From assembly GCA_965113315.1 (NCBI GenBank), contig OZ220371.1: a stretch of 64,000 bases of DNA. One strand, given 5' to 3'. Shown in pieces: positions 4,595-61,022 of this stretch. Source of the DNA: Podarcis vaucheri (lineage: Eukaryota). Numbering within the stretch: the stretch's first letter is position 1; each line of letters begins with the position of its first letter. The notes beneath the pieces were generated by a model, which made no database searches, had not been told where the DNA came from, and was given only the letters and a program-made list of their open reading frames with translations. Made by a program: the position numbers and the translations under genes.

Positions 4595-4851
4595 CAGTGG
4601 TACCTTGGTTAGTTTATGAACAACTTAGTTTATGAACAACTTGGATTAAGAACCCTGCAAACCCGAAAGTAGGTGTTTAGGTTTGTGAACTTTGCCTTGG
4701 TAGCAGAACATGTTTCCGCTTCCTGTTGAGTGTGTTCCAGTTGTAAATTGAGTCCCCCACTGCTATGGAAAAGCACGATTTGGTTTAAGAACGCTTTGGT
4801 TTAAGAACAGACTTCCGGAATGGATTAAGTTCGTAAACCATGGTACCACTG
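4595..4851. mobile_element. Tc1/mariner MITE, related to 138-378
   Basis: TIR CAGTGGTACC...GGTACCACTG, TA TSD. Confidence 0.88.
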
Positions 4852-7800
4852 TACAACAGTTTGTTCCCTTCGGTTTTTATATAATATTAGTAAGAACACA
4901 TCAACAATAGGTCATTGCCTCACAGTGATCTCTCAGTTGTTTATTCTATGAGTGAATATGAGGAGTCACACATGATAATGAAATTTGTGCATTTACAAAA
5001 GGTTTGTACCAAACGTGAGAGAGACCAATAACTGATACGATAAAGGGATATTTCTCTGACTATTCATCTCACTAGTAACAATAAAATAGATAGCTGTATT
5101 GTAAGTGACAGCCTCAATTGATACACAACTCTGATGGCTAGCTGTAGGGTATAGTGATTTATGTTGCTGACAATTACTTAGGCAAAACACTCACACAAAT
5201 CAAGAAATGCTGAGAGAAATTGGTAAGTATTAATAATATGCTTCATAATGTGCTAAATAGAGCTTGTGGTGCCAATCAATGGAATGTCATCAAGTAACGA
5301 AGCAAATAGAGGGGAAGAAAGAGGAAAGCAAAGAGCTGTAATTTGTTGCTAAGCAACACTTGGCCAATTTTTCTCTTGTTTCTTGTGGATTATCTAGAAC
5401 CAATTAAGGAGACCACCAGCTCAGGGCTGGCCCTGCCATTAGGCAAACTGAGAGAGGGTTGCCGCAGACAGCTGATATGGGGTATCGTGAAAGGGTAGCA
5501 AATGATTAGTTATGCAATTATTTTTATTGTTGCTGTTTTTTTGTTTCTTTTACTGCTAGGAGAGGCAGAATTGTTTTGGGGGTTATTATTATATTTTTGC
5601 TTCAAATTCCAAAATAACTTAACCAGCCTTGGGTGTTATGTACCTTGACCTGGAAGCAGGAACACCATGCTGTTCCGCCCCAGGTAGCAAAAAAATGTCT
5701 TGGCAAGGCCCTGCCTGAGGCTCTGGTTGTCACAGTTTCACTGGGAAAACCATGATTTTCAAAGCCCTGCTACAGGGAAAACTCAACACTTGATCAGTCC
5801 CAGTTTTAAAGCAGCAGCACAGCATGTGCCTAGGCTGGCAGAAGTTGAAGGCTCAAGATATACTTTGCTTAGAAAAGTCACATATAAAACCTCTACAATC
5901 TTCATATATAGAAACTACGGTAATCCTTGTGATGGTTGTCTGGTTCTTTTGTGAGGAAAATGTCATTTCTCTCCATCCAGAACATGCTGCTTTCAATCTA
6001 GATTGATTCTAGATTGTGCTATCCACATGGGTGCATGCTAAGAGTTTACTTCTAAACCACTGGTTCATGCCCAGGTGAGGGAGCAAACCTTTAAATAAAA
6101 ATACAACTAAGAGAAAATCAAAGCAAAGTACCCAGCAGAGACCCGGCTTATTTAGAAAATCTATTGCACAACAGAACAGTCTTGCTAACCAGTTGTTAGG
6201 TGAACCACTGCCCTCTCAAAAAAATGATTAATGGGAACCGTAGCTTGTTAAGGATGCTAGGAATTGTATCTCAGTGAGGGAGTAAACCAGTTTGGTGGGA
6301 AAATGTATGGGGTGTGCGCCATTTAAGTGCATAGGACATGCTTTCAGTTAGGTTCTCAGTGTTGGTTCTTCACATGCCATTGCAGTTTGGTGTGGCCAAC
6401 CAACAGAGCAAAACAGAGACATGGGGTCCCTGCATTCTCTAGGGGGCTCCACTGAGTTTGATTAGACAAACAGTGTCTCCACCTGAGAGATGAAAAGTCA
6501 TCAGGGCATGTGGTGGCAGCAAGATTTTAAACCAGAAGTATTTTTTAACCATTGTGTCCACTTTTTTCCATTTAGTAAATAAAACTATGGACTGTTTAAC
6601 ACCTTGAAAACAAGCTGCATTTGCAGAGTCATTGAAGAGAATGACCCCAAAAGATGGGATGGTTCATCCGGGCTTTAACAATCAGCATTGTTTTAGGCTT
6701 TTATTGTCTGAGATGGTAATAAAAATGAAACAATCAGCGCTCTATTTACACCCAGGAGATTATTCTTCTTGCTCCATGACCTGAGGTGCCATGGAGAAGG
6801 ACCTTCTTCTGCTGAGTCCTATAATGCTGATATTAAAAGTTTAATGAAACAGAGCATTGGAACACAAAGTGCAGTGCTTAGACTGCTCCTCTTGTGTTTT
6901 TATGTCCTTTGCATTAGTGTGAACCAGTATTTCTCCATAAATACATAGAAATAATAGTTGTAGTTGCTGAAAGGTTTTATAGCACAACATCAGCTAGTCC
7001 ACAAGAGGCAATGCAAAGCTAAAAAGCGAACATGTAAATAATACCTAACAGAGTCATGTGGGATCAAAGAAAGTAGGAAGAAAGTGTTTGCTATGGATCA
7101 GCCATGTGTTCTCTAGGTAACATTTTTGGTTCAAATGCAGCAATTTCAAGAAGGGAAGTCAGAAAGTCTTGTAAAATCCTAAATTCAACTTTTTGTGAAT
7201 GTTTGTTCACAGTCATTTCCTTCCTTTTGCTTGAGTGACCACTTAAAAACCTCTGTCCCATTCTTTCTTAAGTGATTCTAGCCAATTAAGGATCACATGC
7301 TGGATGTAATGATGGTACGGAAACTCTGGAGTCAATCAGATTTGACACTTTCCTGAGCATCACTAAGGGTGAATGGCTAATTTGGACTCAGGTGGTCTTT
7401 ATAGGAAAGATGACTAAATAGCAGGGGGGAGGGGGGATGCACCTTGGGATCAGACTACATGCTACCTTACACAGAAGTCAGTTTCTCTCTCCCCCCCCTC
7501 CCGTTCTGTGGCAGGTCAGGGAGGAAGGCAGCAGTCACCCATCAAACCATTTCACAAGCCACTTCTAAAGATAGTTTAAAATGAATAGCACACATTTAAA
7601 TTAGAAGTGTGCTACAATAATAAGCAGCAATGTGGGCAAAATATGTCAAATGTTTTTCCAGGTAGATGATCATCATCAAACAAACTTCACTATCAAGGGC
7701 AAATTAGATTATGTAGGGTAAGTAGAGTAAGGAATGTTAACTGAAATTTCAGTTTTTCTGATGTCTTTGATGAAGTTGCAAGCTTCACAAATGCATGCCT

Positions 7801-10197: not shown

Positions 10198-10330
10198 GGA
10201 CAGTGTTCTCAAAGCTACTAACATGAGTTTGACCAAACCACGGGAGGCTGTGGAAGACAGGAGTGCCTGGTGTGCTCTGGTCCATGGGTCACGAAGAGTC
10301 GGACACGACTAAATGACTAAACAACAACAA
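10198..10330 (+). mobile_element. BovB (RTE) LINE 3' end fragment
   Basis: GGTCACGAAGAGTCGGACACGACTAAATGACTAAA(CAA)n terminus. Confidence 0.9.
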
Positions 10331-11035
10331 TGTAATGGGAATGGGATGTATTGCAACTGGTGTGGTGTCCTAAAATGTAGCCAGTCTTAAACAGCACTAA
10401 GTAGGTGAGTGAGTTATTTATTTCTTTTATACTATTCAGATCTATTTTTAAAGATTTGAATCAAAGTTAATCAACTAGCAAATTTAAATTTGCATATATT
10501 TAGAGAAAATACCATGAGCATTAACAGTTCACCCTCTTGGGGAAACTTTTGACTTTCTCATACAAAAGTGTTCAGGGTCTTTTGGTGTTTACGAGAGCCT
10601 TCTAACCATAGATTGCACAGGCCACTAATGATTCTGCAGAAATAAAGCCATTCCCCTTACAAGACCATTTAAGAGGAATTGTTTTTGACAATATTGTGAC
10701 ATTAAACCACTGCAGAAGCAGCAGCGAGTTATGGCTTGGATTTGTTCTGTTGCCCACATATTATTTTTCTGTTGTGGAAACTGAGGCATAGGGAAGTGAA
10801 AGTTCTTATCCTGCAAAGTTCTTATCTTGATAGGCTTGCTTGCAACACTGCAAAGTGACATTTAACTAGTCTCTATTGTCTGCCTTCTTCCTGTAAATAT
10901 CCCTGAAAGCCATTTTACAAGCATCGTCTTTATTTAGGGCTGAATGAAACATTATGCACAAGTGCAAGCTGGGTCTAATTCAAATTGTCTTTTCCCACAC
11001 TAAAAATCTTGCAAAAAAAAATGCTGTGTGAAGAA

Positions 11036-21640: not shown

Positions 21641-21880
21641 TTGTTGTTGTTTAGTCGTTTAGTCGTGTCCGACTCTTCGTGACCCCATGGACCAGAGCAC
21701 GCCAGGCACTCCTGTCCTCCACTGCCTCCCGCAGTTTGATCAGACTCATGCTGGTAGCTTCAAGAACACTGTCCAACCATCTCATTCTCTGTCGTCCCCT
21801 TCTCCTTGTGCCCTCCATCTTTCCCAACATCAGGGTCTTTTCCAGGGAGTCTTCTCTTCTCATGAGGTGGCCAAAGTATT
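21641..21880 (-). mobile_element. BovB (RTE) LINE 3' end, 5'-truncated
   Basis: ORF end YFGHLMRREDSLEKTLMLGKMEGTRRRGRQRMRWLD...HGVTKSRTRLND, (CAA)n tail, 11-bp TSD TCCCTTTGATT. Confidence 0.95.
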
Positions 21881-24800: not shown

Positions 24801-26182
24801 GTGCTACACTTTTTAATACTGACACTTTGTTCTTGAATCATTAATCAGTGTATACAGGGATGAAAATATTACATCCATATACTTAACTTTGTATAAAGGT
24901 CACAGGCCTAGAAAATAAACCACCCTACTGTTTTGTAATTAATACTAGCTAGGAGTACGCGTCATAAACCATTTTATATTTGCCTCAAGACTGCAGTCAT
25001 TTCAGGGCGCATATAAGTGATTACAGTAGCAGCAGGAGAAATTGCCTATCTCAGCGGTGTGCTCTAGCATAATTTAGTTACTGACTAGTCTCCGAGCAAG
25101 CAACGCTAAATCATTCCAGCAAAAGATTAAATTTGGAAAATTTTGATCTATACTGTACTCCATACATGATCAGTGAATACGTGATCAAGAGAGAAGGGCA
25201 GATGGCAGCCATAAATGCTTCTGAGCACACAAACACCCCATTGCGTTACAGTGCCGGCTTTGCTTTTCTGGAGAGAAAAGGAAGTTGTTCAAAGTAGATA
25301 GTTCACCCCTCTGTGGGGGTGTCTAAGATAGATACTCAAGTGGGGAAATTTTTTCACCATGGGATACATTTAACCTGAAATGTATCATCTCATCCATAGG
25401 AGTCTTCTGACCCACGTCCTTTCTGTTTAAGGTGAAAGGATAAACAGATGTTCACCATTCATGCTACTGCTGGCTTCCAATACTAGTGGAAGTTGATGCA
25501 GTGACAGGAGTCTGGTAGCCTGAAAATGACAAGGAACAAGTTTATACAAGGAAAAGGCATTTGCTGCCATGATGCCTGAACCAGGAGCTTAAGATCAAGT
25601 GCCATAATAAAACCTTGCCATAGCTTTTAGGGGATTTTTGAGCAAACTGATGGAGCAAACGCCCTGTACATGTTCCCAGTAGTATTCACTGTTGGCTGTT
25701 TGTATTACAACTAGATATTTTTTACAGTTAATCCTCAAACTGCACTAAAGGTTGGCATCTCGTTAATTGGCCCTGAAACACAAACTCCTCTCCAAGTATT
25801 AGATGCAGACTTTACAAAACTCTCGAAAATTCTCTCCTGGGAGCTTTTAAGTAGGGAAAGTGAACTTGTATATTCTGTTATAATAAAAACTATAGGAAGG
25901 CCAGTTTCACTAAATCATTGTCTTATTAGGCACGCTGTAAGTGTGGCAAAACATTTCTGTTATTACAAGAAAAAATATCCAAATGATGGCACTCTTTAAA
26001 TCTTTATGAGGTGCAGAAAATTGAAGTTTCTGTGTGGACAAGATTTTCATGCTTCCAGCTGTTGAACAACTGCTGCAAGGTTCTAAAGAATTAATTTCAA
26101 ATCCTAACTTTCTACAGATTATGGTTAGGAACACTGGGCTTTACATTATACTTTACATTATGCTGAGTCTATCCTCTTAGTT

Positions 26183-26318
26183 CAGTGGTTCTCAACCTTG
26201 GGTCCCCAGATGTTTTTTGCCTACAACTCCCATGATCCCTAGCTCACAGGACCAGTGGTCAGGGATTATGGGAGTTGTAGGCCAAAAACATCTGGGGACC
26301 CAAGGTTGAGAAAGGTTG
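26183..26318. mobile_element. Palindromic hAT-type MITE
   Basis: Near-perfect fold-back of about 50-bp arms TTCTCAACCTTGGGTCCCCAGATG.../...CATCTGGGGACCCAAGGTTGAGAA. Confidence 0.85.
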
Positions 26319-58057: not shown

Positions 58058-58375
58058 TGATAGAACATTAGACATTAAAACCTTCCCTAAATAGGGCTGC
58101 CTTCAGGTGTCTTCTAAAACACAGATAGTTGTTTATTTCCTTGACATCTGATGGGAGGGAGTTCCACAGGGCAGGTGCCACTACCAAGAAGGCCCTCTGT
58201 CTGATTCCCTGTAACCTCATTTCTCACAGTGAGGGAACCACCAGAAGGCCCTTGGAGCTGGACCTCAGTGTCCAGGCTGAGTGATGGGGGTGGAGATGCT
58301 CCTTCAGGTAGACTGGGCCGAGGTCATTTAGGTCAGCAACAACACTTCGAATTGTGTCGGAAAAGTACTGGGAGT
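57918..58375 (-). mobile_element. L2-clade LINE 3' fragment with (TAT)n and (AAT)n arrays
   Basis: Aligns by eye to the L2 segment at 59365-59616. Confidence 0.82.
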
Positions 58376-59340
58376 TTATTCCAACCTAGAGTCTTACTTG
58401 CTAGGGCAACAAGCCTTTGGACTAATCCACAAGACATGTTTCCTTTACTATACAGTAAATATGCTCTAATCTGTTGTCATGGCATCCACTTATAAGTCTT
58501 CCTGTTGGATTTTTGTCTGTGTTATCCAACAGACAGAAATATAGCATACTATGTGTTTTGGTAGTAAGTGGCAATATTTCCCTCAAAAACCGTATGCCAA
58601 TAACCACCTAGGTGTTATTAATGGTGTTCACCTTCTGGGGCGAGGAAGACTTTCTTTTGAAATTTCTTTCACTTAAACTGCCAGTGAGTCCTTTTAGATC
58701 TGTAACTGCAGGTTAGATACGTGTGCTGAATGGGTGGAAAGGGGAGAGGAAGAAATGACAGAATACCTGGGCTGAGCAGGTTCCTGGCAACTACATAATG
58801 AGAACACTCACTGTTATTAATACCCATCTTCCATTTTGCTTTCTCTCTCCTTGTTGGAATAGGTCCTGGGAGACCTAAGACATTTATAACTCTAGCCAGG
58901 AGCAGCCATACCAGCAATGAACAGTTGCCATCCAAGGACCACCAATTGCTGGTTATTTGTATATGTGGGATCTAAAATTTAACTCATTTAAAGCAAAGGT
59001 TGTAATCCTAAATTAAAATCTTTTCTTGGCAAGTCTTGATACAGCCACAAACATTACAAACACAGTTTGACATGACTTACTCCCTGCAATCCCATTGCTG
59101 TCCACGTTGGGATTCTGGAGATTTCTTTCATCAGAGTTTTTGACTACCACCTTGTGAGTTTTATATTTTATGGATGATGAATGAGTTCAAAGAATCTTGT
59201 AAATATTAAGGAGGAAAATGTGCATACACATAGGAAACAAAACTGAAAGGCGATATATTCAATGTTATTGCTGGATTACCGGAGGGGCGGGACGTGATAC
59301 TACAAAGGCAGATGTTTGATATGATGGCCTTAAAGCTACC

Positions 59341-60080
59341 TTGTTGTTGTTTAGTCGTTTAGTCTGGTAGTTGTTGTTCTCTTTGACATCTGGTGGGAGG
59401 GTGCTCCAGGGGGGGGTGCCACTACCGAGAAGGCCCTCTGCCTGGTTCCCTGTAACTTGGCTTCTCATAGTGAGGGAACCGCCAGAAGGCCCTCGGCACT
59501 GGACCTCAGTGTCTGGGCAGAACGATGGGGATGGAGATGCTTCTTCAGATATACTGGACCGAGGCCATTTAGGGCTTTAAAGGTCAGCACCAACACTTTG
59601 AATTGTGCTCGGAAACATATTCTTGCCATCTCATTTTTGACCACATCCAGCTTCCCAAGGTTCATGGTTCTTACATTCCAGGTTCCTATGCAATATTTTT
59701 CTTTACAGCATTGGACTTTCCTTTCGCTTCCAGGCATATCTGCAACTGAGCGAACTTTCGGCTTTGGCCCAGCCGCTTCATCAGCTCTGAATCTACTCGT
59801 ACTTGTCCTCCGTTCTTCCTCAGTAGCATGTTGGACACCTTCCAACCTGAGGGGCTCATCTTCCAGCGTCATAACTTTTATATGCCTGTTGTCTTTGTCC
59901 ATGAAGTTTTCTTGGCAGGGATACTGGAGTGGCTTGCCGGTTCCTGCTCCAGGTGGATCACATTTGGTCAAAACTCTCCACTATGACCTGTCCATCTTGG
60001 GTGGCCCTGCACGGCATAGCTCATAGCTTCTCTGAGTTCTTCAAACCCCTTCACCACGACAAGGCAGTGATCCATGAAGG
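59341..60080 (-). mobile_element. Chimeric retroelement: BovB 5' end + L2 fragment + BovB 3' tail
   Basis: RTE 5' UTR and ORF start (YCIGTWNVRTMNLGKLDVVKNEMAR) fused in frame to L2 FRAQFKVLVLTFKALNGLGP; tail GACTAAACGACTAAA(CAA)n; TSD AGCTACCTT/AGCTAGCTT. Confidence 0.88.
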
Positions 60081-61022
60081 AGCTAGCTTACTGTGAGCTA
60101 ATTCATTCTTACATATCACCAAGAAAAGTACATAAAACTCCTTTCTAATAATAACAAATAAATATGAAATATTACTTAACTGCTAATTGCTATGCAGTAG
60201 TAGAAAAGAATCTTGGTGAACCACAGCCTAGACTGTGAATTGGTAACAATTATTGATATGTATGTTTGCTTTTCTGTTTTTTATCTACAAGATACACATT
60301 TACACATGAAGCTCAACTTTATTTGCATTTCTTCCCTTATTAATTGATGAGGAATGGTTGAAAAAAAGTGGATTTTTTTTTGTCACACTAACTTGAGATA
60401 AAGTGTGGTGAAAAGAAATACCTGTGTGTCTGGTAAGTGAAGGCTGATGCATGCATTCAAGTCACCACTTGATACAGTCATCAAGTGATGAGTGCACATA
60501 TTTGAATGAGCCCTTTTCCCCAAGTGCTTCTAATTAGGCTTTATTTCACAGCCCAGAAGATTAAGGCTGAAATCCTGTGTCCACTTGCTTGAAAGGAAGC
60601 CCCACTAAACTTAATGTGACTTCCTTCCAACAAGCAAATATTTGACACCTTGTGTTACTTTAGAGACTTTGTTTATCTAGTGTGCTCCTGGTTATTCTAA
60701 TTCATCGGGTGTTCCCCCTCATGTCACTTAAACCCTGTGTAGTTGAAGAATGCTTCCTTTTATCGAGACATAATGTCTGGCTTGTGTTTTTCCAGAGGGA
60801 AGTGCATCTCAGTATTCAAAAGGAACGATGAGCTTGCATTTCCTGCAGGAAGCTTTCATTTTAGCAAATAACATGTCAGAATGATCACAAAGCAATAGGA
60901 AGCCATGACTGACTATCGCTGTGCTAAAATGGTTTGACGTAGAGCACTACCAGTCCCCTCGCATTACAGCTCTCCCCTGCACTCCCCAAGGCCACTTACT
61001 GACACCAAGCATACATCCAGCT

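Follow-up and report, generated by a model that had tools for sequence, protein, structure and literature searches.

Several kinds of composite retroelement insertion have been described that resemble the one reported here. Tripartite chimeric retrogenes are exemplified by WEIRD-MgSINE-MGL in Magnaporthe and B2-U6-L1 in mouse (Gogvadze et al., 2007, PMC2104539). Bipartite non-autonomous RTE elements include Bov-A, RTESINE, MAR4 and WALLSI3 (Kojima, 2018, PMC5786205; see also PMC3747384 for such derivatives), while non-classical, endonuclease-independent insertions are on record for L1 (Sen et al., 2007, PMC1920257). In lizards, U6-RTE and U6-L2 chimeras have been reported from Anolis, where template switching by RTE-like LINEs produces U6 chimeras (Doucet et al., 2015, PMC4476161). 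The element described here is a cross-clade variant of two known kinds, the tripartite chimeras and the bipartite RTE elements.

The element lies in a stretch of 64,000 nt from Podarcis vaucheri (contig OZ220371.1; hereafter "the window", meaning the whole of the DNA analyzed). It is 740 nt long, is read on the minus strand, and consists of a BovB 5' piece, an L2 piece and a BovB tail, all in the same sense and directly fused. Its features are as follows.

60081..60089, minus strand: 5' copy of the target-site duplication, 9 nt, first base A with T before it, 8/9 match to the 3' copy
59618..60080, minus strand: 5' UTR of BovB with codons 1-95 of its single ORF (nt 5-467 of the consensus), the ATG being at 59902
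59618..59619, minus strand: microhomology at junction 1, 2 nt, or 4 nt (to 59621) with the other L2 variant as donor
59361..59619, minus strand: C-terminal coding fragment of L2 ORF2, in the same sense as BovB, without the last ~150 nt of L2
59361..59364, minus strand: microhomology at junction 2, 4 nt, in the 3' arm of the BovB terminal hairpin
59341..59364, minus strand: last 24 nt of BovB with the (CAA)n end, terminal hairpin lost
59334..59342, minus strand: 3' copy of the target-site duplication, its initial two A shared with the BovB tail
59465..59902, minus strand: fused BovB-L2 frame, 145 aa from the ATG, 168 aa from a TTG at 59971, no Pfam match

The first-pass annotation had recognized the BovB 5' UTR and ORF start at 60080-59618, and this is borne out by a match of 96.8% (15 differences in 463) to nt 5-467 of a BovB consensus (3,225 nt, derived from 18 copies). 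The terminal 24 nt (59364-59341) are, as it had also stated, identical to positions 21641-21664 (24/24), and equally so to the consensus tail. Both BovB ends are therewith retained (nt 5-467 and the last 24 nt), while the middle ~2.7 kb is absent and ~255 nt of L2 stand in its place, with 16 differences in 259 from L2. The annotation was right in calling this piece L2 but not in placing it at the L2 3' end: it is a C-terminal coding part of ORF2, and the ~150 nt missing beyond it include the 3' UTR and the (ATT)n tail. The piece has no tail and no duplication of its own and shows microhomology at either end, which are features of endonuclease-independent LINE insertion.

The direct repeat 59334-59342 / 60081-60089 agrees with the 9-bp duplication with one mismatch that had been proposed; with the permissive finder used, a score of 8/9 is reached by 0.97% of 3,000 random flank pairs. 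Duplications of 9-14 nt were found by eye in 12 of 18 long BovB copies with a tail. Because the outer parts are one BovB, the single duplication around the element is not diagnostic of a tripartite chimera. The 4-nt microhomology annotated at the tail junction (59361-59364) is present, a length which ~1.9% of random L2/BovB joins reach. At the 5' junction, the 3-nt overlap (ATA) claimed near 59617 gives way to one of 2 nt against the closest L2 copies, or of 4 nt (59618-59621) against another L2 variant. BovB and L2 do share a reading frame, but the 168 aa credited to the fused ORF apply only from a TTG, and the frame ends prematurely inside L2 at a stop produced by CpG decay (59465-59467), with a 1-nt loss beyond it near 59410. 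Since such a frame match is a 1-in-3 outcome and the frame is now broken, the fused ORF carries no weight. A Pfam search with it gave no match, its protein homologues are from Podarcis and Zootoca, and an Rfam search returned one chance-level hit (E 0.77) and no ribozyme.

The outer parts are BovB (RTE clade). The consensus represents an element of ~3.2 kb with a single ORF of 1,010 aa, a (CAA)n tail and a duplication with initial A; homologues in lacertids carry PF03372/PF14529/PF00078, and one match is sheep CFDP2, which we take to be BovB-derived. The middle part belongs to an abundant LINE with an RT ORF and an (ATT)n tail, presumably L2, a label given from its C-terminal motif and that tail. 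No donor locus for the L2 piece stands out, the best copy reaching 95% with shared changes that are mostly CpG or common variants. The adjacent L2 at 58126-58374 was rejected as donor, at 81% to the fragment; this copy, which extends to about 57990, is older, retains its tail, lies 1 kb from the element and is truncated in the same zone as the L2 piece. A protein match (P0002) considered as a second fusion was also rejected, its coverage of 92% being alignment run-on. The (CAA)n tail and A-starting duplication of the element agree with what is described for lizard BovB in the portions of PMC13295347 and PMC6007223 consulted; in the former, Bov-B_PMu of Podarcis muralis has a (CAA)n tail, duplications that start with A, and ~3% divergence among long copies.

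The likeness to the described systems is partial in every case. As in the chimeras of PMC2104539, three same-sense RNA-derived parts lie within one target-site duplication with a LINE 3' end at the tail. In those chimeras, as far as the excerpts of that paper go, the 5' part is a different full-length RNA, joined with no microhomology and with no return to the first RNA, whereas here the outer parts are the same BovB, re-entry is internal, the middle comes from another LINE clade and both joints show microhomology of 2-4 nt; the element works like a tripartite chimera but, with respect to the different full-length 5' RNA and the lack of microhomology there, falls outside the definition. With the bipartite RTE elements it shares an RTE 5' end joined to an RTE 3' end and the loss of the coding middle. 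Those are amplified families, however, with about 40-90 nt of the 3' end among the table rows listed in PMC5786205, and the element is one copy with 24 nt of 3' end, a lost hairpin and a foreign filler. An internal LINE piece, microhomology at both ends and lost target DNA recall the non-classical L1 insertions, yet these are defined, in the sections of PMC1920257 drawn upon, against a known pre-insertion allele, and the element is known from the filled allele alone, with the tail as the remnant of the host BovB. The U6 chimeras of Anolis provide a parallel in template switching by non-L1 LINEs in a lizard; according to the part of PMC4476161 used, they involve one switch, to a small nuclear RNA, unlike the present element. 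Taken as one dead copy, the element is of little consequence. Its value would be as evidence that, by way of microhomology, a "stringent" RTE enzyme is able to jump to an internal position in the mRNA of an unrelated LINE and then return.

The element is real, single, old and inert. Counting copies of the junctions genome-wide had been suggested as a check, and in the 1.6 Gb searched (285 contigs) each junction pattern, at up to 2 mismatches, has one match, the element's own locus, which argues for a single copy and not a family. Similarity searches concur: of 121 candidates for junction 1, 40 were scored and the element locus alone spans it, and the same holds for junction 2 with 22/22 scored. 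The idea that it founded a nascent non-autonomous family, moving L2 sequence with BovB machinery, draws on the BovB 5' end and (CAA)n tail, which are kept as in bipartite RTE families such as Bov-A (PMC5786205, as excerpted). In view of one match per junction in an element about 3% diverged and common to organisms whose flanks differ by 1.4%, and of the loss of the terminal hairpin, this proposal is rejected as barely credible, although the insertion itself is common to related organisms.

The left flank joined to the tail and to L2 as far as 59390 is present in contigs of organisms A (run X3) and E (run X7), the right flank joined to the BovB 5' end in those of organisms A, B, C and D; in organism D (run X6) a contig covers the left flank plus 16 nt of the tail and stops at 59356. 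The flanks of D show 14 differences in 1,002 letters (1.4%) and the BovB part of the element is 3.2% decayed, so the insertion predates those splits. Outer junctions in the contigs of related organisms, together with one copy per junction, indicate an old element without daughters. In BovB a 5-bp terminal hairpin is predicted (pairing 0.80-0.84), which is absent from the predicted fold of the chimera. The 3' stem-loop serves the partner RT of bipartite RTE families, and the loss of the hairpin would probably account for the absence of daughters. An empty or intermediate allele was not found among the listed rows of 7 runs, of which X4, X5 and X12 gave no left-flank contig; the X13 coverage (ending near 59321) and the X6 contig (59356) are uninformative on the sequence beyond the tail. 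No RNA data with the element were found among the matches listed. Beside the duplication, at window position 60090, one letter is missing in run X3 and present in X4-X6.

The single assembly is the source for junction 1, which leaves room for a misassembly joining the BovB 5' end to L2 at this point. None of the public contigs spans the junction among the 32 pieces listed of ~110,900 and of ~66,000. These contigs appear to drop single-locus paths in high-copy repeats, since those of X3 also lack the window's own letters at BovB sites 59654, 59754 and 59798; at junction 2 the contig pieces have 26-30 letters on the L2 side, slightly below the 31 letters required to count as bridging. Given the flank-tail-L2 contigs in A and E, the flank-BovB 5' contigs in A to D, a duplication common to both sides and a contig of 83 Mb, we consider misassembly very unlikely.

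We suggest, with a probability of roughly 0.55, that the element is a single-copy dead BovB insertion in which ~255 nt of L2 replaced the middle 2.7 kb within one insertion event, the BovB RT copying three RNA stretches; it is likely a bipartite BovB insertion with captured L2 filler. This figure, as well as the weight given below to the two other origins, is a judgement and not a computed value. The double template switching put forward in the first-pass annotation thus stands as the best-supported origin, short of demonstration, and two rivals of the same anatomy had been overlooked there. The three parts, the duplication, the one copy per genome and the sharing among related organisms are observed; the insertion itself would have proceeded in the following way. 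The BovB protein would nick the target and prime cDNA synthesis from its own (CAA)n tail. Having grown by 20-24 nt, to the foot of the terminal hairpin, the cDNA would pair anew, through 4 nt at its end, with an L2 mRNA. Some 255 nt of L2 would then be copied up to a stall at the foot of a stem in L2, a frequent stopping point of L2 copies, followed by re-entry into the BovB RNA at nt ~467 through 2-4 nt and copying to its 5' end, with repair yielding the 9-nt duplication. Junction 2 coincides with the 3' arm of the BovB terminal hairpin. The 18 other tail matches in 613 kb, however, include no second BovB cut down to ~24 nt, and junction 2 is therefore not a demonstrated drop-off site. Likewise, 17 bipartite BovB copies hold no long foreign filler, the longest being 16-19 nt with two of them local BovB duplications.

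Junction 1 lies ~410 nt from the L2 3' end (window 59619; also 58374), in a zone that is a common 5'-truncation point. Of 20 L2 copies reaching the zone, 6 end at -11..+3 around it, where 0.75-1.5 are expected (P 0.0001-0.005), a count partly inflated as 4 of the 6 loci came from the set that suggested the interval; in unselected DNA, 2/5 L2 copies end in the zone. The L2 search seems to favor copies beginning near the query start (9/29 end at +40..+66, possibly a search artefact), and a first sign of a truncation cluster (10/29) was set aside as a possible query-start effect and then re-tested. A predicted L2 stem of 7 bp (7-9 bp; pairing probabilities 0.63-0.99) ends at the junction 1 base, while the local folding energy there is average for this L2. 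Its location in the truncation zone and at the end of the predicted stem points to reverse transcription of L2 RNA as the probable source of junction 1, whichever enzyme was at work. The BovB 5' part and the L2 part are equally decayed (CpG 5/28 vs 8/28; other sites 10/435 vs 8/229; P 0.45-0.73). Both the truncation zone and the equal age of the parts fit the rival origins equally.

The same anatomy would result if a 5'-truncated, same-sense L2 had inserted into a full-length BovB at nt ~467 and a deletion of ~2.9 kb had followed via the 4-nt microhomology, taking with it the 3' end of L2 and almost all of the remaining BovB. Only common parts are needed for this, as 20 long BovB loci include 5 nested insertions (one a same-sense L2-type with an ATT tail), 5 deletions >200 nt and 3 loci with both; two independent events are also named as an alternative for tripartite structures in the part of PMC4476161 consulted. 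Junction 1 has the look of an ordinary 5' junction of L2, the adjoining BovB sequence beyond it is similar to an L2 tail (TATT that close occurs at only 2% of BovB positions), and 4 nt of microhomology suits end-joining. The deletion, however, would have had to end by chance in the last 25 of ~2,740 nt (about 1% by our estimate), deletions in the 20 long BovB copies span about 230-670 nt, the L2 part is no younger than its BovB host, and the listed rows of the 7 runs hold no intermediate; an origin in two steps therefore appears rather unlikely, if far from negligible. Less probable again is a repair event, in which a full-length BovB already in place suffered a break that was resected and filled with L2 RNA or cDNA without endonuclease, the old duplication remaining intact. 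A tail-less internal fragment with no duplication of its own, microhomology at both ends and loss of target sequence is the pattern of the non-classical L1 insertions (in the excerpts of PMC1920257), and an RNA template would suit the location of junction 1 within the zone of L2 truncation. Here too the far end must land in the last 25 nt by chance, and no L2 donor locus stands out; such events are moreover rare (21 loci), and 71% have extra nucleotides according to the same excerpts, of which the element has none. The best reading remains an origin of the element in one event, favored by the frequent insertions of a BovB 5' piece plus a 3' piece in this genome.

Such insertions are seen at many loci. 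Among 30 loci retrieved with a query from the BovB 5' end (L173-L202), 7 have 5' and 3' pieces in direct orientation and 10 have an inverted 5' piece, one of the latter being the query locus itself, and their breakpoints differ.

Direct bipartite loci: L174, L175, L180, L181, L189, L198, L202
Inverted bipartite loci, among others: L177, L179, L183, L185, L186, L188, L190, L191, L199
Further bipartite BovB loci: L223, L224

A duplication was found by script in 6/7 of the direct loci. The 3' pieces of bipartite copies measure 70-613 nt and are always near the BovB 3' end, as in the element, and breaks are often at nt 200-240. The sample obtained with the 5'-end query is biased towards bipartite copies; with a second query, 29 loci yielded 1 direct and 1 clear inverted case, several of these loci being copies of a single duplicated region, and in 464 kb of unselected DNA 2/12 BovB 3' ends carry an inverted upstream piece. 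Inverted forms within one duplication fit twin priming at insertion. The inverted BovB insertions in unselected DNA are at L123:5050-5665, with a duplication of 13 nt with one mismatch, and at L131:4536-5423. At L197:1460-1705, an isolated stretch of BovB (nt 3-202) is flanked by direct repeats of about 11 nt and has almost no tail. Two loci taken up as similar chimeras were rejected, L056 being two separate BovBs and L050 a BovB with an unrelated insertion.

These frequent, independent bipartite and inverted BovB insertions are a better lead than the element, and the many direct and inverted cases make an insertion-time origin testable. We tentatively propose that the BovB enzyme may habitually quit the RNA 3' end early and finish on its own 5' region, direct or inverted, so that bipartite copies would arise de novo many times per genome, sometimes capturing LINE RNA of another clade in between. 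If so, this would account for the tendency of RTE LINEs to give rise to bipartite derivatives, and in the element one would see preserved a case of how foreign middle bodies enter RTE-type SINEs. In the literature searched, a scope that excludes Repbase, Dfam and most subscription journals, neither a BovB-L2-BovB element nor an inverted bipartite BovB is described. The text of PMC13295347 gave 0 hits for "internal deletion", "chimer", "inversion" and "bipartite"; Podarcis BovB copies are listed in its supplements, which may be relevant to the bipartite insertions.

Elsewhere in the window there are two ordinary 5'-truncated BovB copies of 240 and 134 nt (21641-21880 and 10198-10331), and on the plus strand exons of an ionotropic glutamate receptor gene (8141-34896; ANF_receptor, Lig_chan-Glu_bd, Lig_chan). 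In the genome at large, a BovB copy with the same flanks at many places marks a tandemly duplicated region (G000:C18:2.78-3.79 Mb; L042-L044, L225-L232). Small repeat families in the window are represented at 309-381, 4783-4853 and 35413-35521, and at 35060-35194 / 50119-50259; in a further one, the pair 26178-26318 / 63779-63916 matches in either orientation, as expected of a palindromic element.
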